The translations under genes and the position numbers were made by a program. This document shows positions 345 to 58,069 of a DNA stretch of 64,000 nucleotides, piece by piece. The stretch is from a virus (lineage: Duplodnaviria; Caudoviricetes), in IMG/VR virus record IMGVR_UViG_3300014205_000174, one strand, 5' to 3'. Below the pieces are notes generated by a model. The model worked only from the letters and a program-made list of their open reading frames with translations. It searched no databases and had not been told where the DNA came from. How positions within the stretch are numbered: the stretch's first letter is position 1; every line of letters begins with the position of its first letter.

Positions 345-3300
345 ATGGGCGTAACAAAGGCCACTAAAAATAAACCGACCAGTAAAAAGCCTTCTGCCGC
401 GAAGGCCGGTGTTGTATTGCCTGTACCGGCAACGCCAGCTCAATTGCGCCGTCGCTGGAATAAAAAAACTAGCCAGGTGGAAAAGCTGGCAAATAATATC
501 CAAAGCCTGCGGTATAATCTCACTACTGATATGAAGAGTGATGACCAGAAGGTGTTTCTGACGGCTCTTTGTGTAAAGTGCATGGAGCTTACTGGTGAGC
601 GTGTCGGCAATGACGAAAGCGCTGCTAATGGGCATAGGGGTATTACTGGATTGCTTAAATCCCAGGTAAAGGTAGAAGGTAATAAGGTTTCATTCCGGTA
701 TACCGGTAAGTCCGGGGTTAACCAGGATAAATCCGTAACGGATGAAAAACTCGCTGATGGCATACGTCGTGCGAAGGAAATATCCAAAGCGAAGTATCTT
801 TTTTGTACAGATGACGGGTTTAAGATAAAGAATGACCGCGTCAACAGGTATCTGGCTGACTTTGAGATTACGGCAAAGGACTTGAGGGGCTTTTCTGCCA
901 ACCGCTGGCTGATACAGAAGTTAGTGGCCAATGATATCGCTGACGAGGAGAAGGACAGAAAAAAAGACTTCAATGCATTTGCAAAGGTTGTTGCTGCGAA
1001 AGTGGGCCACGGTACCGGCATGCTGAAAAACCAATACCTCATACCGGGGTTGGAAAAGGCGTATGTAGAGGAAGGCAAAATAATAGACATCAAGGATATT
1101 GCCGGATATAAAAAAGGTGGTGGCGTTGAAAAGATGGAAAAGGGTGGTGTTGTGGCTAAAAAAGAATCCACTAAAAAACCAAGTCCCAGTGAACCTGCGG
1201 GAAAGACAATAAAATATTCCGAGTTTAAAGAAGATATCCAAACGTTTATATTTCAGTTCCTAGAGGATAGCGGGGCTCCGGATAAGATTCTCGATAACCT
1301 ATACCGCGCAAGGTTTGTGGTTAAGCCGTATCCTATAAAAAATATTTCTCCGGAAGTAAATGAGGCGTCCCTGGATAAAGACCGGGGTGTACAACATGCG
1401 GCAAAGTTCAAAAAAGACAAGTACCAGCCGGTAATATTTTTCAACAACAAACTGATTGATGGCTTCCACAGGGCCTATTCTGAAAAACAAAAGGGTGCAT
1501 CGGTTCTGTATGGTATCGAGCTGTCTGATGTTTTGCATGAAAAGAAGGCGGAGCTGAAGGCCGGCGGCCAGGTATCCAAGCCCGACCCATTTAACGAATG
1601 GTTTGCCGGCAGTAAAGTTGTCGATAGCAAGGGCCAGCCACTTATTGTTTATCATGGCACCGATGCTGAAAATATTACAACATTCAATATTGATTTAGTT
1701 CGCGATAAATTTGGTTTCTGGTTTTCTGACGATAAGGAGTTCTCGGAAATGTTTGGCACTACAGCCATACCGGTATACCTGTGCATTAAAAACCCGCATG
1801 TAATAAGCAAAGAAAAATGGGACGATATCCGACGTGCGCATGCAAAAGATGCAGTGTGGTTTGCATCATGGCGTGACCAGTTAATATCCAAAGGTAAAGA
1901 TGCGCTGATAATTGAAAGCAGCGATACGACCTTTGCTGGCACGAAAATACGTAATCCAGAAATTTATGCGGTATTCCATCCAACGCAAATAAAGCTTGCT
2001 GACGGCTCCAATACCACATTTGACGGCAACAACCCAGACATTCGATTTGAGAAGGGCGGCCATATATATCGCAGTGTTGGCATGGAAGGTTACCTGGTGG
2101 GTAAAAGCAGGTGTCCATATATCGGCAAAGAAAAAGAAATTGATGCTTACGACACGGATATCCGTTGCTTCGTTTCCGAAACCAACGATACCTACCGGTT
2201 TATTTATGTTGTAAACAAAAAGAATGTTTCCGTTCTTCATATTCAAAAGGAAGGTGCTGACTGGGTAATCCGCAATGCATTTACCTTAGAGCATCACCGC
2301 AGACATGGGTATGGCCGGAGTCTTTACCTTGAGGCGCAGAAACATTTGCGCAGAGTTGTATTTTCGTCCAATTTGAGCCAGGAAGGCAAGGCATTTAAAG
2401 AAAATGTTACTCTAGAAATGCATATTGGTAATAATACGGAAATCGGTAGGATTGACGATGAAACAGATACCCAGTTTCAGATAAAAGGAACGTGGTATGC
2501 AAAATGGATAATAAAGCCAGCGGCGGTCGCTGAAGATAATGAAGGTATACTTGTTCCGGATAAGATAAAGCCGACGATGATTATATCTGCATTTTCAAAT
2601 GAGATGGATTGGGATAAGGTAGAGCGGTATGCTGATATTATGAAGGAAAGTGGTATGGAGCATGGTTTCCCTGCTATATCTGGGTATCCTATTATTATTG
2701 ATGAAAACGAAATTGGAGACCAGTTTCTTACCGGTGAGGAAGTGTCTGAACATCATGTTGGTCAGTTAGCGTGGAAGGTAACCAACGGCCATCATCGTTC
2801 TTTGGGGGCCATAAAGGCAGCTCTGCCATGGATTGACGTTGAGCTTGATTATAGTACGGTAACTAACATGGAGCGCCATAAGCGCACAAACGGCAAGTAC
2901 TACGAATCTGGCGGCATTACCGAAGATGATGAACCGAAGTCGACATTAGACCAGCTAAAAGAAGATGTTTCCGCTTGCAGGAACTTTGACATTTTCAGGG
3001 GCAGAATTGCCCTGCGCGAACCAGATGAGGTTAACGAGATAATGACTGTCCTTGGTCTTGAAAAAGCAACTACCAGGGAAATTGGTGATATTAATCTGAA
3101 AAAGCTGAAGGACTTTTATACTCAGGAAAAGCGCATAGTAAATGAGCGTCGTAAGATAAGGGGCAATGAGGCGGCAGCTATCCGCACTGAAAAAAATGTT
3201 GAGAATATCTTTGACCTTGCTAAAATATTAGGTGACGACATGGATAAGGCTGTACTGGATTACGAAGAAAAGAAAGCCGCTATCAAATACCCGGTACAAT

Positions 3301-4814
3301 TAATTACCGTGGAGCCATCTATTTTAGATGTGCTCAATGGCCTTTCGGATAAAGGATGCAGGGCGCTGATAGTTGGTGGCGCTGTCCGTGACGCTATTCT
3401 GGGCATCACCCCGAAAGATATAGACATAGAGGTTTATAACATAACCTACGCAGACCTGAGCGAATACTTATCGCAGTACGGGAGAGTTAACCTTGTTGGT
3501 AAGAACTTTGGGGTTATTAAGTTTAATCCGGCAGCAGGTGGAATGGAATACGACTTCTCCGTTCCAAGAAGGGAAAACAAGATAGGTGTAGGCCACAAAG
3601 AATTTGAAGTGACCTTTGATACCACCATGACCATAAAGGATGCCGCAATGCGCAGGGACTTTACGTTTAACTCCCTTGCGTATGACCCGGTATCCAATAC
3701 GGTGTATGATTACTTTAATGGCCTGATGGATATCCGGCTCAAAGTAATAAGGCACACGTCTGAAAAGTTTACTGAGGACGCGCTGAGAATACTCAGGGCC
3801 ATGCAGTTCCAAGCCAGATTTGATTTCACCATCGCTGAGGATACCAATACCTTAATGCGGGAAATGCTTACTACCTCTGATGAGTTTGCATCCTTGCCAA
3901 AGGAGCGTGTTTTCGAAGAGTGGTACAAGTGGGCCTCAAAGGGCGTCCGCCACGACCTTATATTCTCGTTCATGCGGGATTGCGGCCTTATCGACTGCTA
4001 CCCGGTATTAAAGGCGCTGGCAGAAACGCCGCAGGACGCTGTGTATCACCCGGAGGGGAATGTGGAGGTGCACACTACCTTATGTCTGACTTATATGGAC
4101 TCTATCTTGTCCCGGATGCCGGATATCCCGGCTGACGAGAAAGTAGTGCTGGTAATGTCCACGCTGCTTCATGATGTCGGTAAGCCTGCAACTACAGAGG
4201 AGCAGCTAAAGAATGGCAGAATGACGATTACAAGCAATGGCCATGAGGCATTGGGCGGTAAGATGTGTCATGATTTTTTACCTTCGCTTGGGTTCCATAA
4301 AGATTTGGTAGACCCTATAGCTAATATTGTAGCTAATCATTTGGCTGGCGTGAATATTACCATGATACCGCATGAGAGTGGCAGGGTAAAGGCAGTAAAG
4401 AAGCTAAGTAAGCGATTGTACCCGGCAACTATCCAGCAATTGCTGCATGTGATGGATGCAGACAGTAATGGGCGTGGCTGGGAAGAATACAAAGAACCTA
4501 CCGGTGCAAAGGAGCTGACGACCATAGCCGCAGACATAAACGTGACGGACAGGCCCTATGAATTTATACTTCTGGGGCGTCACCTTATAGAAGCAGGGCT
4601 AAAGCCGTCTCCTGCATTCGGGGAGATTTTACGTAAAGCAAACGAGGCCCAGTTAAACGGCGAATTTAATGATATTACCGGTGGCAGGCAGTGGCTGAAG
4701 GATAATTTGGATAGCTTTGTCAATGGCGGCATTATTAGTGCACCAGTTGATTTGTTTGCCGACTCGCCTGGTGCACCAGTTGTAAATAGTGCAGTGCCGG
4801 ACTTATTTCAATAA
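345..4814 (+). CDS. polyvalent polyprotein: topoisomerase IB catalytic domain + ParB-like + ART-PolyVal ADP-ribosyltransferase + GNAT + ParB-like + class II CCA-adding nucleotidyltransferase with HD domain
   Basis: TopoIB residues RVGN, GKSG, KDLR, GH, QY. ParB-like LIDGFHR and VTNGHHR. ART: SKVVDSKGQPLIVYHGT..GFWFS..PVYLCIKNP..QIK. GNAT: HRRHGYGRSLY. CCA: VGGAVRD..KDIDIEV, RRDFTFN, EDALRILRAMQF. HD: YHPEG..HT..LLHDVGK. Confidence 0.9.
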   Translation: MGVTKATKNKPTSKKPSAAKAGVVLPVPATPAQLRRRWNKKTSQVEKLANNIQSLRYNLTTDMKSDDQKVFLTALCVKCMELTGERVGNDESAANGHRGITGLLKSQVKVEGNKVSFRYTGKSGVNQDKSVTDEKLADGIRRAKEISKAKYLFCTDDGFKIKNDRVNRYLADFEITAKDLRGFSANRWLIQKLVANDIADEEKDRKKDFNAFAKVVAAKVGHGTGMLKNQYLIPGLEKAYVEEGKIIDIKDIAGYKKGGGVEKMEKGGVVAKKESTKKPSPSEPAGKTIKYSEFKEDIQTFIFQFLEDSGAPDKILDNLYRARFVVKPYPIKNISPEVNEASLDKDRGVQHAAKFKKDKYQPVIFFNNKLIDGFHRAYSEKQKGASVLYGIELSDVLHEKKAELKAGGQVSKPDPFNEWFAGSKVVDSKGQPLIVYHGTDAENITTFNIDLVRDKFGFWFSDDKEFSEMFGTTAIPVYLCIKNPHVISKEKWDDIRRAHAKDAVWFASWRDQLISKGKDALIIESSDTTFAGTKIRNPEIYAVFHPTQIKLADGSNTTFDGNNPDIRFEKGGHIYRSVGMEGYLVGKSRCPYIGKEKEIDAYDTDIRCFVSETNDTYRFIYVVNKKNVSVLHIQKEGADWVIRNAFTLEHHRRHGYGRSLYLEAQKHLRRVVFSSNLSQEGKAFKENVTLEMHIGNNTEIGRIDDETDTQFQIKGTWYAKWIIKPAAVAEDNEGILVPDKIKPTMIISAFSNEMDWDKVERYADIMKESGMEHGFPAISGYPIIIDENEIGDQFLTGEEVSEHHVGQLAWKVTNGHHRSLGAIKAALPWIDVELDYSTVTNMERHKRTNGKYYESGGITEDDEPKSTLDQLKEDVSACRNFDIFRGRIALREPDEVNEIMTVLGLEKATTREIGDINLKKLKDFYTQEKRIVNERRKIRGNEAAAIRTEKNVENIFDLAKILGDDMDKAVLDYEEKKAAIKYPVQLITVEPSILDVLNGLSDKGCRALIVGGAVRDAILGITPKDIDIEVYNITYADLSEYLSQYGRVNLVGKNFGVIKFNPAAGGMEYDFSVPRRENKIGVGHKEFEVTFDTTMTIKDAAMRRDFTFNSLAYDPVSNTVYDYFNGLMDIRLKVIRHTSEKFTEDALRILRAMQFQARFDFTIAEDTNTLMREMLTTSDEFASLPKERVFEEWYKWASKGVRHDLIFSFMRDCGLIDCYPVLKALAETPQDAVYHPEGNVEVHTTLCLTYMDSILSRMPDIPADEKVVLVMSTLLHDVGKPATTEEQLKNGRMTITSNGHEALGGKMCHDFLPSLGFHKDLVDPIANIVANHLAGVNITMIPHESGRVKAVKKLSKRLYPATIQQLLHVMDADSNGRGWEEYKEPTGAKELTTIAADINVTDRPYEFILLGRHLIEAGLKPSPAFGEILRKANEAQLNGEFNDITGGRQWLKDNLDSFVNGGIISAPVDLFADSPGAPVVNSAVPDLFQ

Positions 4815-4834: not shown

Positions 4835-7336
4835 ATGTCAGTAAAAACTTTACCAAAACCAAATAGGGGTACTGGGTACCTGGCTGGCAAGCAGAACGGC
4901 AAGACTGTTATACATACAGATGGCGACCTTGGGGGCGTACTCGTTGGTGCGCGGCACAGCGATGGCGGCATACCTGCTGTCAACGAGAGCACCAATAAGC
5001 CGCTGGAGGTGGAAAAGGGTGAGGTGAGCATTACGTCTAAGGCCGTGACCAATACTGAAGTATATAATTTTGATGGGCAAGAAATGACCGCTAAGGAAGT
5101 GCTTTCGAAAATAAATAGTGACGCCGGCGGGGTTAAGTTTAAAAAGGGCGGTACGGTTGAGCGTACCTATAGCCTGAATGGTCAGCAAATGACCGATAAG
5201 CAGATTGAGCAAAAACTGCATGGGAATAAAATTGAAGACAAAAGGGACGGGAATAAAATTTCCTACTCCGGTGGCGAAATTATAATTACCCGACCCGCTG
5301 TTATGTCTAAGGAGACCCATAATTTCTGCGGTAGTCAGCTTACGAACTTTCAAATCCTATCTAAGATTAATGTGGATAGTGGCGGCATAGCCTTTGCGGA
5401 TGACAATGCAGACGTATCAGTAAAGCCTAATGACCTGGAATATGAATTTGGTGGGAAGGTCATGAAGGGATATGAGATAGTTGAGCAATATGCATGCGGA
5501 TGTAAAATGGAAGATGGTGGTGTGGTGAATGATTATCCAACTGTAAAGTTATCAACCATCAAGAAGCTGCAATGGTATGTGCGTCCTGACGGCAAGACAG
5601 AGTTACAGGCGGAAATTAATGGGGAGCATAAAAAAGCCGTATTTGATGATGCCGATAATAAAATAGGCTATTATGGTTTATGTAATACTGCGGACAATGC
5701 ACTTAAGTTACTTGAAAAGTATTTTAAGATAAAAATAAAACGCGATAAGTATCCTGGGTACTTTGATTCTGGTGGTGAAATAGCAGACACCGACTATGAA
5801 ATAATTCCCGCAGAGAATAGCGGGCGTGGCGTGACAGAAAAAGTTCGTATTACTGATGATAAAGGCAGGGTGGCCGAATATTCTATTTTCGGCGGCGATA
5901 TACCTTATGCCATACAGTGTGCGCGGCAATCATTAAAGTGGCAGCAGGAAATTGACGATATAGTTGGCCCTGAAGGGGATTTATCTGAATATGCACAGTC
6001 TATTTATGACAATGCGCTGACCAGGTATAAAAAAGCGGATGATAGAAAGAAAAAGGAACTATTGCGTAAGCTCAGGTTTAATATATCCATGATTAGGCCC
6101 GTTCTTAATTCAGTACAGGCTGGCAGTATTGAAAACATAGAATTTGTCCGCGCCGGTGAAAAATTCCTCAAAGACCACGCCCCTGATTTCATGAGACATG
6201 GTGGTGTCGCAGAAGGCGGCAGGCAGTCAAACTTTGATTTCCTCAGTGAAAAAATATCCTCTGGTGATTTAATCATTGACCGTAATGGCATAGTGAGAAC
6301 ATACGCATGGCATAGCGGTGATGGCAGGCTCGTCGTTGAATCCGATAATATACCAAGCCGCCATGGGCCAGTTACTATGTACAAAATAAAAGTAGACGGT
6401 GTTGAAAAAGAAACTACCGATGATTACGCCATGGCCCTGAATCATACGCGGGAATATTTCTTAAAGCATCAGGCTGGCTCTCACATGGAAGAAGGGGGCG
6501 TTATAGAAAGCCTTACTCCTCAGCAGCAATATGACATAGGGAATTACCTGCCAGTTAGAATAGGAGGCATAAATAATGGGTGTGCCTGGGCTGACGTATT
6601 TAATGACGAGGGCCTGCTATCTTCGGAGCCGAAGTCGCTGGATTACTATTATCAGATTGCCATTAAAATAAAACCCGGAGCGGCATACCTTGAAAGGGAG
6701 GGGTTCTGGGATGATTTCGCAGACCGCATGGAAGAGTTAGGGCGGCCGTTGTCGTATGAGCAAGGCGGTAGGCTCCAGGGTCGGGAAAATTGCACTTACG
6801 AGCAACTGGTTGCAAAATATCCAATGCGTGACGGCTATAGCATCGGCAATCTCCAGCTCGATAATGCTGCAACGGGTAAGACTACACCCTATTGCGTTGT
6901 AAATAAAAAAACCGGTGTATTAAATAAGCATGGGCGTGATGAAATGGAAGTTGTAGCATATTACCAGCAGATAGGGCAAAATACACTGCAACTATGCGAA
7001 AATCCATATGCTGCACGTAGCCAGGAGAAAGCGTTGGATAAGGACGTTATTGAAGATGTGTCCATAGAAATGGCTGATGTTAGTCAGGATAGTATGGAAG
7101 ATAATATAGCAGAATGCATAAAAAACCAGAATGCTCTTTACAAAAAAGTCAAGGCATCGAACTGGGACAGGCTTGCGAAAGCTACTTTTTATAGCATGAA
7201 ACTTACTGAAGCAAAGGCTAATTTCAGTACGTATCAAAATATAGAAGGGGAATTCATGTCGGAACTAATGAATATGTGCGATTGGTTGATGAACAAGTGG
7301 CAGAATGCGCTTGACGAGGTGCGGGTGCAAAAGTAG
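4835..7336 (+). CDS. modular polyprotein of unknown function with GG-delimited modules
   Basis: 833 aa; duplicated N-terminal unit (GE..IT..AV..E..NF.G..T..ILSKIN.D.GG); separators FKKGG, YEFGG, MEDGG, FDSGG, MRHGG, MEEGG, YEQGG. Confidence 0.75.
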   Translation: MSVKTLPKPNRGTGYLAGKQNGKTVIHTDGDLGGVLVGARHSDGGIPAVNESTNKPLEVEKGEVSITSKAVTNTEVYNFDGQEMTAKEVLSKINSDAGGVKFKKGGTVERTYSLNGQQMTDKQIEQKLHGNKIEDKRDGNKISYSGGEIIITRPAVMSKETHNFCGSQLTNFQILSKINVDSGGIAFADDNADVSVKPNDLEYEFGGKVMKGYEIVEQYACGCKMEDGGVVNDYPTVKLSTIKKLQWYVRPDGKTELQAEINGEHKKAVFDDADNKIGYYGLCNTADNALKLLEKYFKIKIKRDKYPGYFDSGGEIADTDYEIIPAENSGRGVTEKVRITDDKGRVAEYSIFGGDIPYAIQCARQSLKWQQEIDDIVGPEGDLSEYAQSIYDNALTRYKKADDRKKKELLRKLRFNISMIRPVLNSVQAGSIENIEFVRAGEKFLKDHAPDFMRHGGVAEGGRQSNFDFLSEKISSGDLIIDRNGIVRTYAWHSGDGRLVVESDNIPSRHGPVTMYKIKVDGVEKETTDDYAMALNHTREYFLKHQAGSHMEEGGVIESLTPQQQYDIGNYLPVRIGGINNGCAWADVFNDEGLLSSEPKSLDYYYQIAIKIKPGAAYLEREGFWDDFADRMEELGRPLSYEQGGRLQGRENCTYEQLVAKYPMRDGYSIGNLQLDNAATGKTTPYCVVNKKTGVLNKHGRDEMEVVAYYQQIGQNTLQLCENPYAARSQEKALDKDVIEDVSIEMADVSQDSMEDNIAECIKNQNALYKKVKASNWDRLAKATFYSMKLTEAKANFSTYQNIEGEFMSELMNMCDWLMNKWQNALDEVRVQK

Positions 7337-10277: not shown

Positions 10278-10283
10278 TGTTGC

Positions 10284-10690
10284 ACGTTTGTTGAGGCTTT
10301 TTGAGAATCTGTAAGACCCGAGTTCGACTCTCGGCGACTCCTCAAAATTGCGGTTAGTAATATATGTTGGTGTACAACAATTTATATGAAAGGGTGTATC
10401 CATTATTGCAGCTCCTGGAATTCAAACGGTTGAGCGCGAAAAAAATACACGGCGGCAGCCCGCAATGATATTATTAGTCATGAGTAAGTACATGACTCGC
10501 CACCCTATCAACACGGGGTCGACTGGCTATCGATTGCAGAGGATGGAAAGTGGAGAATGTGTAACATTGAACGGCAACACAATTGCTTTTACTCCGGTTT
10601 ACTCTATGAGAAAAACTGCGTAGTACGAAATTAAGCTCCAGCGAAAACGGGGCCAGAAGGAGCAGGCGTAAGTCTGCTCCTTTGCTTTTG
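10284..10690 (+). ncRNA. ssrA: circularly permuted (two-piece) tmRNA; outer ends approximate
   Basis: Acceptor piece first: TCTGTAA-GAC, T arm CCGAG-TTCGACT-CTCGG, CGACTCC (10335-10341). Coding piece later: GGGGTCG (10515-10521) pairs with it including G3-U70; TTGCAGA pairs with TCTGTAA; tag ORF 10573-10623 GNTIAFTPVYSMRKTA*; terminator hairpin near 10656-10690. Confidence 0.8.
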
Positions 10691-17199: not shown

Positions 17200-19464
17200 A
17201 TGCCTAACGAAAACGAAATCATACAGCAAGCAATAGACCAGGTAAGACGCGATATTCTTGCGAACAAGGATTTTGTGCGCGGTATACTGAAGGATATTAA
17301 GCTCACAAAAGACAACATTGACCCCAATTTAATCTACGCGCTCATGACACAATTTGCTTCAAATCAGCAGCCAAGAAGGCCGCAATCGAATGCGCCAAAA
17401 GAAATTGCAGACGGCGACAAGGCCGTAGCAAAGCCAATTGCCATTTCCGTGGACAGCCTTGAATCAAAGGTTGTGGCGGACTTGCTGTCCGGTAATAACG
17501 TGTATTTATACGGCAAGGCCGGTAGCGGTAAGGCTCAGCCGTTGTATTCGAAGATAGCCACACCCGATGGCTGGAAGGCCATGGGTGACTTGTCAAAAGG
17601 GGATACTGTTTATTCTTCTGACGGTAAGCCAACTAAGGTGACTGGCGTATTTGACAGGGGCGTGAGGGATATTTATCGCATTACCTTTTCTGATGGGTCG
17701 TATACTGATTGTTGCGACGAGCATTTATGGGCTGTGTATAATTATAATTACATGGCTGGTAAAGAAACAAAGGTGATGGCGCTGAGTGCTTTTAAGGATA
17801 ATATTATTAAGAAGCACGGAGGTGGTAAGTATAGAATACCTATAAGCCAGGCTGTTCAATACAAGGCTAAGAAGCATGTAATACACCCATATGTATTGGG
17901 CGTAATATTGGGTGATGGCGGCATGACAAATGAGAATATTACTATCACCACGCCGGATACTTTTATTGTAAAAAAAGTATCCGCATTACTACCGGATACT
18001 TTGGAGCTGAGGCTGTTTAAGCAAGAAGAAGGCAAGTGCCCAACATACGGTATCCGGCTAAAAGATAAAAAGACTAAAATAAATGTTTATCGGCATGAAT
18101 TAATAAGGCTGGGCCTGATGTATAAGAAGTCAATAGATAAATCAATACCGGCAGAATATCTGTTTGATTCTATTGAAAACAGGCAGCAATTATTACTGGG
18201 TCTTAATGATACGGATGGTTCTGCTAGCGTATCAATGGAGTTTAGCACTTCATCTGAGAAATTATCACAGGATTACGTGGAGCTGATTCAGTCCCTTGGC
18301 GGTACATGCAGGGTGAAATCAAGGATACCGAAATTCAAAAACAGTAAAGGGGAAGTTGCTTATGGCCATGTAAGCTTCCGGCTTTATCCAAAAGTGATGA
18401 ATGAGCTGGAGCTGTTTTCGTTGCCGTCTAAAAAGAGTAAAGTTCCCAAGCGTACAAAGTATTTCCCGTCAAGGGTGATTTATAGTGTTGAATTTATAGG
18501 TAAGCTGCCAGCAAGATGTATATCTGTTGCGAATGAAAGTCATTTATATCTTACCGATAGCTACATCGTAACGCATAATACCTACCTCGCCGAAGCCATA
18601 GCAACAACTATCATGGGCCAGAAGAAGTTCCTGATAAATTGTTCGCAATGGACGTCCCCTGTGCAGCTTATTGGCGGCCAGACCATTAAGGGCTACCAGG
18701 AAGGGGAATTGATTAAGGCGTGGGCTCAGGGTGGGATACTTATACTTGATGAGTTGCCCAAGCTTGACCCGAATACGGCCAGTCTGCTTAATGCTGCACT
18801 GGCAGAGACAGCCGCTCAGCCGAAATACGATGATGCGGGAAATGTAATACCCAGCACTATTCCTTCTATCACCAATGGTCGTGGTGATGTTATTTATAAG
18901 GGACAAGACCAGGCCGACCCGGCATTGAAATTCAGGTTTGGGGTAATTGGTACCGGTAACACGGATATGAAGACCGTGGGTAATAAATACGGCGGTAACC
19001 AAAAGCAGGACTATTCACTTGTGGACAGGTTTGCCGGCTCTTATTACCTGCTTGATTATTCACGTGATACGGAGATGCGCCTCACCTACCCTTATGTGTA
19101 CGGTGTATGTGCTGCCATACGTAAATTCCTTGACGCACGTGATTCCGTGGAAAGCATATCGCTTCGTACCATGCTCAACATGAACAGGACATATGAGCAG
19201 GAGATGCTGTATAAGCTGGAGAACAGCCCGTTTGCCGATGAGATTTTCGACAACAACGGGAATGAAATCCCTCCAAAAACTATTGATAATTCCATCGATA
19301 GCTTTTTGTCTATGCTGGACAAGCAAAAGATGAATGACCTGCTCGACGATACCGACTTTAAGAACGCGCGTAACAGCACGGATAATAATGTCGAGACATT
19401 CATCCGGCACTTTAAAGCCAAGTATCATCTTGACCCGATTACCGGAGAAAGAGTCAAGAAGTAG
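17200..19464 (+). CDS. MoxR/CbbQ-like AAA+ ATPase containing an intein
   Basis: Walker A GKAGSGK|T split by the intein; Walker B ILILDE; GTGNT sensor; LVDRF arginine finger; ISLR. Confidence 0.88.
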   Translation: MPNENEIIQQAIDQVRRDILANKDFVRGILKDIKLTKDNIDPNLIYALMTQFASNQQPRRPQSNAPKEIADGDKAVAKPIAISVDSLESKVVADLLSGNNVYLYGKAGSGKAQPLYSKIATPDGWKAMGDLSKGDTVYSSDGKPTKVTGVFDRGVRDIYRITFSDGSYTDCCDEHLWAVYNYNYMAGKETKVMALSAFKDNIIKKHGGGKYRIPISQAVQYKAKKHVIHPYVLGVILGDGGMTNENITITTPDTFIVKKVSALLPDTLELRLFKQEEGKCPTYGIRLKDKKTKINVYRHELIRLGLMYKKSIDKSIPAEYLFDSIENRQQLLLGLNDTDGSASVSMEFSTSSEKLSQDYVELIQSLGGTCRVKSRIPKFKNSKGEVAYGHVSFRLYPKVMNELELFSLPSKKSKVPKRTKYFPSRVIYSVEFIGKLPARCISVANESHLYLTDSYIVTHNTYLAEAIATTIMGQKKFLINCSQWTSPVQLIGGQTIKGYQEGELIKAWAQGGILILDELPKLDPNTASLLNAALAETAAQPKYDDAGNVIPSTIPSITNGRGDVIYKGQDQADPALKFRFGVIGTGNTDMKTVGNKYGGNQKQDYSLVDRFAGSYYLLDYSRDTEMRLTYPYVYGVCAAIRKFLDARDSVESISLRTMLNMNRTYEQEMLYKLENSPFADEIFDNNGNEIPPKTIDNSIDSFLSMLDKQKMNDLLDDTDFKNARNSTDNNVETFIRHFKAKYHLDPITGERVKK
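17533..18579 (+). mobile_element. class 3 intein (349 aa) with a LAGLIDADG homing endonuclease
   Basis: Starts AQPL, ends VTHN before Thr; W in EHLW, C in RCISV, T in VTHN (WCT triad); LGVILGDGG and LLGLNDTDGS motifs. Confidence 0.88.
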
Positions 19465-35294: not shown

Positions 35295-36635
35295 ATGCCA
35301 CTTTATAAGTCCAGAAAAATACGATTAGAGCCGAACAACAAGCAGCTTACGCTACTCCGTAAGCATGCAGGTTGTGCGCGGTATGCGTATAACTGGGCCA
35401 TTGCAATAAGCGAGCGGATATACGAAGAATATAAAATAACCATCACAGCCATAGACCTAAACAAAATGTTTGTGAAGATGGAGAAGTCGCAGCATAACTG
35501 GCTGTATGAAGTCAGCAAGTGCGCTACACAGCAGGCCATACGCAACTACGAGACAGCGAGAAAGAACTTCCACAGGATACAGAAAGACAGTGGGTACACT
35601 AAGAAGCGTCTGCTAAATAAACGCTCCGAAGACGGAAAGAAAGTATACATCCTTGAGGGTCTGCCGCAGAAAAAGAAAAAAAACAAGAGCCGCGATAGTT
35701 TTTACCTTGAGAATGATGGCGTAAAACCAATACAAACAAAAAAGGGGTATATTAAACTGCCAAAGATAGGTTGGGTGAGAACGTCCGAGGATATTTCACC
35801 GGAAGTGTCATTCCTTAGCTGCACCATAAGTAGGCGTGCTGATGACTGGTACGTAAGCTACAAGTACGAGTTTGAGCCTACGGAGCACAGAAACATAAGA
35901 ACTGTTGGCGTAGACCTTGGCATAAAGACACTAGCTACACTGAGCACCGGTATAACCTTTGATACCCCCAAAAGGTACAAAGAGCTTAATCGCAGACTGC
36001 GCCGCGAGCAGAAAAGCCTGTCTCGTAAGTATGAATCTTGGAAGCTGCACAAAAACGACCAGCGTCCACAGAGCCAAAATTACAAGAAGCAAAAAACCAA
36101 AATAGCAAAGTTGCATAAACGCATTGTAGACCATCGCTTAGATGGCCTGCATAAGCTCACTACCCACCTCACCAAAAACCACAGTGAGATAGTTATTGAG
36201 GATTTGAATATAAAGGGCATGTTGAGCAACCACAATCTGGCCAGAAGTATTGCCAATGGGAGTTTCCGTGAGCTGCGCCGCCAGTTGAAATACAAAGGCG
36301 ACTGGTATGGCTGTAGAATTACCGTAGCTAACAGGTTCTTCCCGAGCAGTAAGATGTGCAGTGTCTGCGAAGCAATCAACAAGACCCTTAAGTTAAAAGA
36401 CCGGGAGTGGGACTGCGAGGGTTGCGGCACCCATCACGACCGTGATAATAATGCATGCCAGACACTGGAGCAGTACCCAACTATGCATGCATATAAATAT
36501 TTGCCGGTTAGCCAAACCGGATATGCGGAGAGTTCCACCGTGAAAGCCTGTGGAGCCGGGAGTTCTGCGAGAGTTTCGCATAGCCTGGCTATTAGTACGA
36601 AGCAGGAAGTAAACACTAAAAACCCGCGTGAGTAG
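35295..36635 (+). CDS. tnpB: TnpB RNA-guided nuclease (IS607/IS605-type), no TnpA
   Basis: N-terminal RLEPNNKQ..HAGCARYAYN; RuvC GVDLGIK, IVIEDL, DRDNNA; Zn finger CSVC/CEGC. Confidence 0.92.
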   Translation: MPLYKSRKIRLEPNNKQLTLLRKHAGCARYAYNWAIAISERIYEEYKITITAIDLNKMFVKMEKSQHNWLYEVSKCATQQAIRNYETARKNFHRIQKDSGYTKKRLLNKRSEDGKKVYILEGLPQKKKKNKSRDSFYLENDGVKPIQTKKGYIKLPKIGWVRTSEDISPEVSFLSCTISRRADDWYVSYKYEFEPTEHRNIRTVGVDLGIKTLATLSTGITFDTPKRYKELNRRLRREQKSLSRKYESWKLHKNDQRPQSQNYKKQKTKIAKLHKRIVDHRLDGLHKLTTHLTKNHSEIVIEDLNIKGMLSNHNLARSIANGSFRELRRQLKYKGDWYGCRITVANRFFPSSKMCSVCEAINKTLKLKDREWDCEGCGTHHDRDNNACQTLEQYPTMHAYKYLPVSQTGYAESSTVKACGAGSSARVSHSLAISTKQEVNTKNPRE

Positions 36636-56779: not shown

Positions 56780-58069
56780 ATGTTAAAATCGTTCAAATAC
56801 AGGTTAGATTTAAATGAGGAACAGAAAACGTTCTTCAATAAATCATTTGGCTGCGCAAGGGTGGTGTACAACCGCTGTCTTGACCGCCGAAAGGAACTGT
56901 ATGCGGACAACAAACAGACAATAAGCGCCTACGATTTAATTAATGAAATTACGTTACTAAAAAATACAGAAACGTATTATTGGCTTTCGGAAGTTGTTGC
57001 TCAAACACTACAGTGCGCTGTAATGAATCTCGACACCGCCTATAAGCAATTCTTTAATGGTGGTTTTGGTTTTCCAAAATACAAAAGTAAGTATGCTCGT
57101 CAGAGTTGCCAGTTCCCACAAAATGTAAGAATTAATTTTGATAACAACAAGGTGTGGTTCCCGAAACTCGGCTGGACACGAACACATATCAGCCGCCAGT
57201 TTACCGGCAAGATAAAAACCACTACCGTCAGTAAAAATGCTTCCGGCTATTACTACGTGAGTATCCTTGTTGACAATTCAAAGCCATTACCCGAGAAATC
57301 ACCGGTAGCGGCAGATACGGCCATAGGTATAGATGTAGGTGTGAAAACCCTTGCTACCTTCAGCGATGGCACAAAGATGGAGAATCCCAAGTACTACGCC
57401 AAGTCGCAACAGAGACTGGCAATATTGCAAGAACGTTTAAGCCGTAAGGATAAGAACCGGTATCCAACGTCAACAACGGACAAAAGCAGTAAACGGAGAG
57501 TGAAAGCTAAAAAAGCGGTTGCGAAACAGCACCAAAAAATCGTAAATCAGCGAACCGACTACTTACATAAACAGTCCACGAGAATAATCCGTGAGAACCA
57601 AACGATTATAATCGAGGACTTGAATATAGCTGGCATGACCAGCAGGGTGAAAACAAAGAAGCAGGACGAGAATGGCGCGTATCTACCAAACGGCCAGGCT
57701 GCGAAGTCCGGACTGAACAAAGCAATACTTGACGTAGGTATAGGTCAGTTCTTTGACATGCTGGAATACAAAGCAGAATGGTACGGTAGGAACTTAATCC
57801 GTATCGGACGCTTTGAGCCCAGTAGCAAGACCTGCTCAAACTGCGGTTACGTCAATCAAGCCCTTACACTTAAAGGCAGAGAGTGGATGTGCCCTGTGTG
57901 TGGAGTAAACCACGACCGGGACATAAACGCTGCTGTCAACGTTAAGGACATGGGGCTAAAACAATACTACTCAGAAATGAGAAAGGAATTTAAATTAAAG
58001 ACAGGGGAGGGCATCCCCAGTGTGGACAGTTCGGCTATAGATGTAAAATCTGGGGCCAAAGCTGTCTAG
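56780..58069 (+). CDS. tnpB: TnpB RNA-guided nuclease (IS200/IS605 family), no TnpA
   Basis: FKYRL..FGCARVVYN; GIDVGVK, IIIEDL, DRDINAA; CSNC/CPVC. Confidence 0.93.
   Translation: MLKSFKYRLDLNEEQKTFFNKSFGCARVVYNRCLDRRKELYADNKQTISAYDLINEITLLKNTETYYWLSEVVAQTLQCAVMNLDTAYKQFFNGGFGFPKYKSKYARQSCQFPQNVRINFDNNKVWFPKLGWTRTHISRQFTGKIKTTTVSKNASGYYYVSILVDNSKPLPEKSPVAADTAIGIDVGVKTLATFSDGTKMENPKYYAKSQQRLAILQERLSRKDKNRYPTSTTDKSSKRRVKAKKAVAKQHQKIVNQRTDYLHKQSTRIIRENQTIIIEDLNIAGMTSRVKTKKQDENGAYLPNGQAAKSGLNKAILDVGIGQFFDMLEYKAEWYGRNLIRIGRFEPSSKTCSNCGYVNQALTLKGREWMCPVCGVNHDRDINAAVNVKDMGLKQYYSEMRKEFKLKTGEGIPSVDSSAIDVKSGAKAV

Follow-up and report, generated by a model that had tools for sequence, protein, structure and literature searches.

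Introduction

Polyvalent proteins are regarded as the earliest weapons that phages and plasmids carry into a cell, and, to our knowledge, hardly any of them have been tested at the bench. The protein considered here, P0001, is the 1,489-amino-acid (aa) product of one open reading frame (ORF) in a 64,000-nucleotide stretch (the window) of IMG/VR record IMGVR_UViG_3300014205_000174 (Duplodnaviria; Caudoviricetes), and its source is a 211,455 bp contig of a large uncultivated double-stranded DNA virus. This single ORF joins disparate activities: a type IB topoisomerase (TopoIB), an ADP-ribosyltransferase (ART), a GNAT acetyltransferase, a ParB/sulfiredoxin-fold (ParB/Srx) domain, a class II nucleotidyltransferase of the CCA-adding type, and an HD phosphohydrolase domain (the last two together, CCA/HD).

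The closest described systems are the polyvalent proteins of Iyer et al. 2017 (PMC5512222). Packaging and injection were predicted for proteins with the ART-PolyVal domain, as was modification of host proteins by their ART and GNAT domains, and an ART-PolyVal directly followed by a GNAT was described as a characteristic dyad (PMC5512222). ParB/Srx domains of polyvalent proteins were predicted to be NTP-regulated DNases (PMC5512222). According to the same work, phage P1 DdrB, which is ParB-like, and the ART T4 Alt are carried in the head and injected, and DdrB is proteolytically processed before packaging (PMC5512222).

Judged by its domain content, P0001 belongs with the polyvalent proteins as Iyer et al. 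2017 defined them (PMC5512222). It carries the family-specific ART-PolyVal domain with the GNAT standing directly after it; its neighbours carry LPD23 and AAA_34/Helicase_C_4 domains, and its relatives carry Kinase-PolyVal, LPD3, DUF5661 and NUDIX domains. The initial annotation of this DNA had placed the protein with the phage and plasmid polyvalent proteins, and the ART-PolyVal–GNAT dyad, the ParB/Srx domain, and the helicase and LPD23 neighbours agree with that placement. TopoIB and CCA/HD are two enzyme types added to the known polyvalent effectors, in a combination that recurs in metagenomes; a known class is thus extended, and no new class is created. Like other polyvalent proteins, P0001 would probably (roughly 60%) be a multi-enzyme kit that is delivered or made very early, perhaps cut at Gly-Gly (GG) junctions between its modules. 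In it, TopoIB may look after the topology of the genome as it enters, and CCA/HD may heal and rebuild the ends of tRNA and transfer-messenger RNA (tmRNA).

One intact gene

P0001 is one genuine, intact gene. Its frame (345..4814, + strand, stop included) is open throughout, without an internal stop or frame change, and the identical protein was called on a second contig, a 49-kb Logan assembly of run SRR6484325, whose DNA, compared with the window along 14,814 bases, showed 0 mismatches. The initial annotation had named an assembly chimera as one danger to its reading. Such a chimera, or a mis-joined ORF whose fusion is absent in nature, is very unlikely, given identical DNA across 14.8 kb in two assemblies, the unbroken frame, and single-ORF joins of the same kind in relatives from other samples: ART-GNAT in P0034, TopoIB+ART+CCA in P0003 and P0004, and the module at aa 285-405 joined to CCA in P0005. 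The gene is also syntenic with that on contig L004. On the other side, both contigs may stem from the same reads, and the GC content at third codon positions (GC3) of the CCA head module (3270-4034) is 0.56, above the 0.41-0.48 of the other modules, base composition being otherwise even.

Catalytic modules

The initial annotation had recognized, from the letters alone, the catalytic residues of a TopoIB (R, K, R, H, Y), an ART-PolyVal-like domain, a GNAT, two ParB-like domains and a class II nucleotidyltransferase with an HD domain. Profile searches support most of these calls.

The TopoIB module matches Pfam PF01028 (Topoisom_I) over aa 40-226 with 61.1 bits (E 1.3e-16; gathering cut-off 23.7), and its best solved relative is the Deinococcus radiodurans TopIB (PDB 2F4Q, E 1.8e-14). 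Residues R86, K122, R181, H222 and Y231 align with R137, K174, R239, N280 and Y289 of 2F4Q, which we take to be the active-site positions of that enzyme, and the R-K-R-H-Y pentad is invariant across four diverged TopoIB modules (alignment A4). The match begins at chain residue 90 of 2F4Q, indicating that a Lys-rich arm of 39 residues takes the place of the customary N-terminal domain. The closest phage match, found by tblastn in a collection of 50,697 phage records, is 37% identical and lies in an unannotated 485-kb uncultured phage.

The CCA/HD module matches several families. Its head matches PF01743 (PolyA_pol) over aa 1008-1136 (76 bits) and its HD domain PF01966 over aa 1263-1354 (28.3 bits; cut-off 22), PHROG 2244 ('tRNA nucleotidyltransferase') spans aa 1007-1440 (E 1.5e-69), and the NCBIfam family PRK10885 ('multifunctional CCA addition/repair protein') is matched over model positions 4-375 of 409 (E 9e-52). 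PRK10885 is also the best NCBIfam family (176 bits), ahead of PcnB (117 bits). All class II nucleotidyltransferase motifs were found: motif A (GG1011-1012 and D1025xD1027), motif B (RRD1103-1105) and motif D (ED1144-1145xxR1148). Compared with the CCA enzymes of phage isolates, the module shows ~30% identity (tblastn).

The ART module matches PF18760 (ART-PolyVal) over aa 427-559 with 73 bits (cut-off 31). The catalytic residues of ART-PolyVal were described as a His on strand 1, a Tyr on strand 2 and an Asp on strand 5 (PMC5512222). In P0001 the His is present as H437, and position 459 is a Trp where the aligned relatives show Tyr (40 copies) or Phe (23).

The GNAT segment on its own lies below the Pfam threshold (16.8 versus 20.7 bits), with three GNAT families at E ~0.01. 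A search with aa 575-1005 among 1.84 billion representatives returned many stand-alone relatives of ~115 aa for aa 575-690, and a profile of 33 relatives (A1), 32 of which are stand-alone proteins of ~110-150 aa, matched RibT (PDB 5xxr, E 7e-6) and more than 25 other GNATs including RimI-type enzymes. Motif A (R/Q-x-x-G-x-G/A) reads R652-R-H-G655-Y-G657, the consensus in the 33 sequences being RRKGYA. The assignment of aa 575-690 as a GNAT is confirmed at the level of this family profile only.

The same search returned a second family of stand-alone relatives, covering aa 733-845. In their alignment (A2, 29 sequences) the H and R of the DGHHR motif (TDGHHR; TNGHHR in P0001) are invariant, and the T and G nearly so. 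An AlphaFold2 (AF2) model built on A2 has a predicted local distance difference test score (pLDDT) of 84; sulfiredoxin, ParB, Noc and KorB structures make up nearly all of its top Foldseek matches, and it superposes on Myxococcus ParB (PDB 7bnk) with Z 9.1 and a root-mean-square deviation of 2.9 Å over 79 residues. The modelled fold and the conserved motif together confirm aa 733-845 as a ParB/Srx domain. This is the second of the two ParB-like domains initially called, and it stands on its fold and DGHHR motif; the first, at aa 285-405, has neither a Pfam nor a PDB match and is unproven.

The module at aa 285-405 contains a DGFHR motif and has a sole relative, aa 53-180 of P0005 (44% identity); a search of 5.8 billion proteins gave neither stand-alone nor longer relatives. 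A PDB profile search was empty, and hhalign against the ParB2 family gave a probability of only 32% over 26 columns. The AF2 model, built on an alignment of two sequences, has a pLDDT of 70 and no PDB fold match (Foldseek, VIA second look and VIA wide; best Z 2.5). Many ParB/Srx-named matches were seen in a viral structure library, all weak with E >0.005, and the ESM Atlas gave only a 0.88 lead to a ParB_N cluster. An alignment to P0010 that reached into aa 342-405 was rejected as a low-similarity extension of its ART match. Module X, at aa 858-975, gave spurious Pfam matches only.

Could several of these modules be catalytically dead? A partly decayed or decoy protein, whose modules serve for binding, as decoys, or as structural parts such as a core or cargo scaffold, would fit W459 in place of the Tyr or Phe of most relatives together with an ART acidic residue that could not be placed, the TopoIB that lacks its N-terminal domain, the minimal GNAT of ~115 aa, and the two modules (aa 285-405 and 858-975) of no recognizable fold. 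It is nonetheless quite improbable in view of the TopoIB pentad kept in four diverged modules, the full set of class II nucleotidyltransferase and HD motifs, GNAT motif A conserved in 33 sequences, and the invariant H and R of DGHHR in 29. Moreover, many ART copies of relatives have Phe at the Tyr position, suggesting that an aromatic residue may suffice there. The coordinates of the modules and junctions and of some large neighbouring genes are collected in Table 1.

Table 1. Features of P0001 and of the co-oriented genes that follow it; positions are those of the window.
Feature	Residues of P0001	Positions	Strand	Basis or remarks
Lys-rich N-terminal arm	1-39	345..461	+	2F4Q match begins at query aa 40; arm found in related modules
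TopoIB catalytic domain	40-250	462..1094	+	PF01028; 2F4Q; pentad R86, K122, R181, H222, Y231
Junction 1	255-259 (YKKGG) and 264-268 (MEKGG)	1107..1148	+	G258-G259 invariant in four aligned TopoIB modules
Module possibly ParB/Srx-like	285-405	1197..1559	+	DGFHR at aa 372-376; relative P0005 aa 53-180
Junction 2	404-408 (LKAGG)	1554..1568	+	Homology breakpoints cluster at aa 400-420
ART-PolyVal ADP-ribosyltransferase	416-572	1590..2060	+	PF18760; H437, W459; ends in QIKLADGSNTTFDGNNPDIRFEKGG, which is junction 3
Minimal GNAT acetyltransferase	575-690	2067..2414	+	Profile A1 versus PDB; motif A R652-G657
ParB/Srx-fold domain with N-terminal beta-hairpin extension	705-845	2457..2879	+	A2, AF2 model, fold matches; TNGHHR at aa 813-818
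Junction 4	853-857 (YESGG)	2901..2915	+	Homology blocks of P0010, P0011 and P0032 begin or end here
Module X	858-975	2916..3269	+	43% identical to the last 145 aa of both P0010 and P0011
Class II nucleotidyltransferase (CCA-adding type), head to body	976-1230	3270..4034	+	PF01743, PHROG 2244, PRK10885, PDB class II enzymes
HD phosphohydrolase domain	1231-1440	4035..4664	+	PF01966; TIGR00277 HDIG; H1235, H1276-D1277
Junction 5 with 27-aa C-terminal tail	1458-1462 (FVNGG)	4716..4811	+	Tail within alignments to P0004 and P0008
Strawberry-notch-type helicase, 1,555 aa		11944-16611	+	AAA_34 and Helicase_C_4; typical companion of polyvalent proteins
AAA_5-type (dynein-related) AAA+ ATPase with LAGLIDADG homing-endonuclease region		17200-19464	+	C-terminal part matches AAA_5
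Proteins of 620, 675 and 2,271 aa and a TnpB gene				In the co-oriented run after P0001

Relatives and cassette organization

In a search of 5.8 billion clustered proteins, 85 proteins were found to share parts of P0001. TopoIB, ART and CCA occur together in three metagenomic protein clusters (P0001, P0003 and P0004), TopoIB with ART in eleven, and CCA with ART in eight; the view of the initial annotation that the combination was not known from elsewhere no longer holds. The architectures differ from one relative to the next. P0003 has TopoIB, three ART copies and CCA/HD; P0004 has TopoIB, a weak GNAT, Kinase-PolyVal, CCA/HD, ART and DUF5661; P0031 has two ART copies, Kinase-PolyVal, TopoIB and NUDIX; and P0036 has DUF3990, TopoIB, NUDIX and three ART copies. 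P0005 combines the aa 285-405 module, CCA/HD, LPD3, two ART copies and a C39-like peptidase, and on its contig (L003) TopoIB is a separate 270-aa gene (5104-5916) directly upstream of the polyvalent gene. Since relatives fuse, split, duplicate and reorder the modules, with breaks at [FYML]xxGG, the modules are cassettes.

P0010 occupies the syntenic position on its own contig (L004), which has in common with the window's virus the genes for an acyl carrier protein and a glycosyltransferase, the polyvalent gene itself and a large neighbour. It contains TopoIB, a YunG-like domain, GNAT, ART and module X, without CCA. The CCA module looks like an addition in the P0001 lineage and, given its higher GC3 and its absence from this syntenic relative, may be a more recent acquisition.

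The combination was not encountered among deposited phages. With the whole of P0001 and with aa 1-575 as tblastn queries, the 50,697 phage records gave separate CCA, TopoIB and ART matches, none covering 80% of the query; no record among them holds TopoIB and ART together, and no nucleotide match was found in this collection. Pattern scans with P0001 and with the TopoIB alignment gave no relatives in IMG/VR or in 185,579 species genomes.

The GG junctions and possible processing

A hydrophobic residue followed by two residues and a double glycine closes nearly every module of P0001 (YKKGG, MEKGG, LKAGG, FEKGG, YESGG and FVNGG). Across 86 proteins (P0001, P0002 and 84 relatives), [FYML]xxGG was observed 640 times against 173 expected, the enrichment being confined to proteins with ART-PolyVal and/or TopoIB and not seen in other CCA fusions. 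No such enrichment was seen in two large polyvalent-type proteins that match the ART, F116 gp60 (Pseudomonas phage) and BF1-TP2 gp68 (Bacteroides phage). The junctions also mark where homology stops: 65% of 260 BLAST homology endpoints, among which ART matches dominate, fall no more than 15 aa away from a junction, the expected share being 11%. At the junction after the ART, GG was found in every aligned copy with a residue in those columns (118 and 117; 176 copies counted), and the final ~25 residues of the ART modules (QIKLADGSNTTFDxxNPDIR[FY]xxGG) are the best-conserved part of the module.

These junctions may be cleavage sites. The C-terminus of P0005 (L003:10798-11181), directly after a YSKGG junction, matches Peptidase_C39-like (PF13529) with 29.3 bits (cut-off 24), this being a Pfam assignment for a segment with no significant PDB sequence match. 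C39 peptidases are described as cutting after double glycines (PMC6363468), and a C39-like double-glycine peptidase at the end of a relative suggests processing. Alternatively, the junctions may be flexible linkers or recombination joints, a reading that is possible if somewhat doubtful. Breakpoints at the junctions fit recombination joints as well as they fit cleavage sites, and no protease was found in the window; however, a GG that is nearly complete and preceded by a hydrophobic residue three positions upstream exceeds what a flexible linker needs, and a C39-like double-glycine peptidase is fused in one relative.

A bolder proposal, which we put forward only tentatively, is an undescribed cargo system of large uncultivated viruses, with P0001 and its neighbours among its members: interchangeable enzyme cassettes, each closed by an [FYML]xxGG tag, would be released by a double-glycine-specific protease in the particle or in the host. 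The protease would be C39-like, fused in some relatives and separate in the virus of the window. If true, bacterial viruses would have their own version of the Gly-Gly-X polyprotein processing seen in asfarviruses and adenoviruses, one that brings in, along with the genome, a TopoIB and an enzyme repairing tRNA 3' ends, among other enzymes.

Two further genes of the window touch on the junctions. P0002 (4835-7336, +), the next gene, encodes 833 aa with 7-8 copies of the motif ([FYMLIW]xxGG; 1.9 expected), among them FKKGG, YEFGG, MEDGG, FDSGG, MRHGG, MEEGG and YEQGG, and no family match; it appears to be a further cassette protein belonging to this system. P0204 (21136-23271, +; 711 aa) combines an LPD23 domain with two HExxH motifs (HETQH and HELGH). 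These motifs make it a candidate for a zincin-type peptidase like those to which the processing of polyvalent proteins has been ascribed; searches of Pfam and the PDB gave no peptidase match for it.

Genomic neighbourhood

P0001 heads a co-oriented run of very large genes (Table 1). At the place matching the helicase of the window, relative L002 encodes a 1,701-aa SNF2 helicase and an N6 methylase, and the P0010 contig encodes a 1,529-aa protein with no domain call. The LAGLIDADG region of the AAA+ ATPase gene is probably an intein. 'Terminase' PHROG matches of this ORF were rejected, being probably due to the LAGLIDADG region, which probably explains its 'primase' and 'helicase loader' matches as well. 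Two TnpB (OrfB_IS605/Cas12f-like) genes lie at 35295-36635 and 56780-58069 (+), and a third lies near the polyvalent gene of L003. The acyl carrier protein and glycosyltransferase genes stand 2-5 kb upstream of the polyvalent gene (L001:4983-7836; L004:6723-8700), a synteny conserved between the virus of the window and the P0010 relative. Most scanned ORFs of the window match no family; PHROG matches, the intein-bearing AAA+ gene and the TnpB genes are present, and no capsid, portal or terminase was recognized in the window.

A candidate permuted tmRNA lies at 10283-10561 (+), 5.5 kb downstream of P0001. It matches RF04321 with 36.1 bits, below the gathering score of 47 (E 9e-6 in a 500-base search), and its acceptor strand CGACUCC is followed by UCAAAA in place of the ACCA of the model, so that no CCA is encoded. 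ARAGORN found no tRNA or tmRNA anywhere in the window, and Rfam likewise gave no tRNA near the ORF.

What might P0001 do?

In the favoured reading, P0001 is a product for the opening minutes of infection that would most likely be carried in the particle and enter the host together with the DNA, possibly being cut after its GG junctions. The initial annotation had likewise suggested a kit for host takeover and anti-defence that would act early in infection. TopoIB would relax the incoming or replicating genome, as the poxvirus virion topoisomerase does; the vaccinia H6R topoisomerase is a virion enzyme (PMC1540416) and offers, by analogy, a precedent for a delivered viral TopoIB. ART and GNAT would modify host proteins, and the ParB/Srx domain would be an NTP-dependent DNA-binding or nicking module. 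CCA/HD may remove 2',3'-cyclic or 3'-phosphate ends and rebuild the CCA of tRNAs that host defence has damaged. Toxins are known whose targets are tRNA acceptor ends (PMC11541572), and jumbo-phage CCA enzymes have been read as serving tRNA 3'-end repair (PMC7824862). The same module could also mature the tmRNA-like RNA of the virus itself, which encodes no CCA.

Several observations weigh against this reading. Immediately upstream lie genes for an acyl carrier protein and for a glycosyltransferase rather than for virion parts, and no structural gene adjoins P0001. The alignment to 2F4Q leaves TopoIB without an N-terminal DNA-binding domain. The PRK10885 score of 176 bits falls short of the equivalog cut-off of 451, so that the module is a class II nucleotidyltransferase of the CCA-enzyme type and not a proven CCA equivalog; CCA addition, A addition and poly(A) synthesis are specificities that the sequence does not distinguish. 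In the ART, W459 sits in the column taken as the Tyr position of the family and the acidic catalytic residue could not be placed confidently in the 176-copy alignment, for which reasons this module may be inactive or altered. As to processing, the C39 domain was found in just one of the 86 proteins (one of 203 examined by phmmer), and no protease was recognized in the window by tblastn with the P0005 C39 domain or by Pfam searches of ten further ORFs. The stand-alone 270-aa TopoIB of L003 retains YKHGG 12 residues before its stop, hence the motif cannot be solely a separator of fused modules.

Part of this evidence would suit a different view, in which P0001 is a non-packaged intracellular housekeeping fusion, its co-expressed enzymes serving the needs of the 200-kb virus itself; we regard this as possible, though on the unlikely side. 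TopoIB would then act in replication or transcription, CCA/HD would mature the tmRNA or tRNAs of the virus, and ART and GNAT would be ordinary early host modifiers. Stand-alone TopoIB and CCA enzymes are ordinary in jumbo phages (PMC7824862; tblastn matches annotated as topoisomerase or tRNA nucleotidyltransferase), the candidate tmRNA without an encoded CCA lies nearby, and the upstream neighbours are of metabolic type. On the other hand, proteins for which delivery with the DNA is predicted have hallmarks (PMC5512222) that recur here, namely the ART-PolyVal domain, Kinase-PolyVal and LPD domains in relatives, and a helicase and an LPD23 protein as neighbours. These favour the delivered or very early kit.

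With this gene, the polyvalent repertoire extends to DNA topology, through a poxvirus-like type IB topoisomerase, and to the upkeep of translation, through a CCA-adding enzyme with an end-healing HD domain, which bears on viral answers to defences that damage tRNA ends. Cassettes, a conserved GG junction and the double-glycine peptidase of one relative lead to a testable idea of how giant proteins come apart, and the interest of P0001 is higher if this processing is true. Since the modules are small, have intact catalytic motifs and can be assayed separately, a computationally defined class becomes a set of simple experiments.

Comparison with known systems

The large polyproteins of African swine fever virus (ASFV) and the adenovirus protease substrates resemble P0001 as large viral proteins with Gly-Gly-X cleavage, a likeness that is analogy only. 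ASFV pp220 and pp62 are cut at Gly-Gly-X by pS273R into virion core parts (PMC10308890; PMC8619059). These systems use a Ulp1- or adenain-like protease, none of which was found here, and their products are shell proteins, whereas the modules of P0001 are enzymes and its cleavage is predicted only. P0001 also has a hydrophobic residue three positions before the GG, which would be P5 if cleavage occurred after GG.

Vaccinia H6R and the Deinococcus TopIB (2F4Q) share with P0001 a catalytic domain with the R-K-R-H-Y pentad (N280 at the His column in 2F4Q). They possess an N-terminal domain of ~80-90 aa where P0001 has the 39-aa Lys-rich arm, and the TopoIB of P0001 is fused to other enzymes, that of L003 remaining a 270-aa stand-alone gene. 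Likewise, the E. coli-type CCA enzyme (PRK10885) and the jumbo-phage CCA enzymes (PHROG 2244) have the same head-neck-body motifs and C-terminal HD domain and stand alone, whereas the P0001 copy is embedded in a polyvalent protein.

Phage P1 DdrB and T4 Alt contain a ParB-like domain and an ART, respectively, as P0001 does, but these belong to different ParB and ART clades: T4 Alt is of the R-S-E type and the ART of P0001 belongs to the H-Y-D family. In further contrast, P0001 has no zincin domain in the same polypeptide, and its packaging is a prediction.

The polyvalent proteins of Iyer et al. 2017 are closest. As in P0001, many unrelated enzyme domains are joined in one viral polypeptide, ART-PolyVal is followed by GNAT, domains of the ParB/Srx superfamily occur, helicases and LPD proteins are neighbours, and domain shuffling is rampant. 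The differences lie in the enzymes and in the boundaries. In the main text of PMC5512222, 'topoisomerase' appears only in a reference title and 'CCA' never, and both enzymes are likewise absent from the main text of two later reviews by the same group, which fits the remark of the initial annotation that TopoIB and a CCA enzyme are additions to the polyvalent repertoire. The Pol-beta nucleotidyltransferase described there is a minimal NTox45-like domain, whereas that of P0001 is a full class II CCA/HD enzyme. Finally, processing of the described polyvalent proteins was ascribed to zincin-like metallopeptidases, whereas the modules of P0001 are bounded by [FYML]xxGG and one of its relatives carries a C39-like peptidase.

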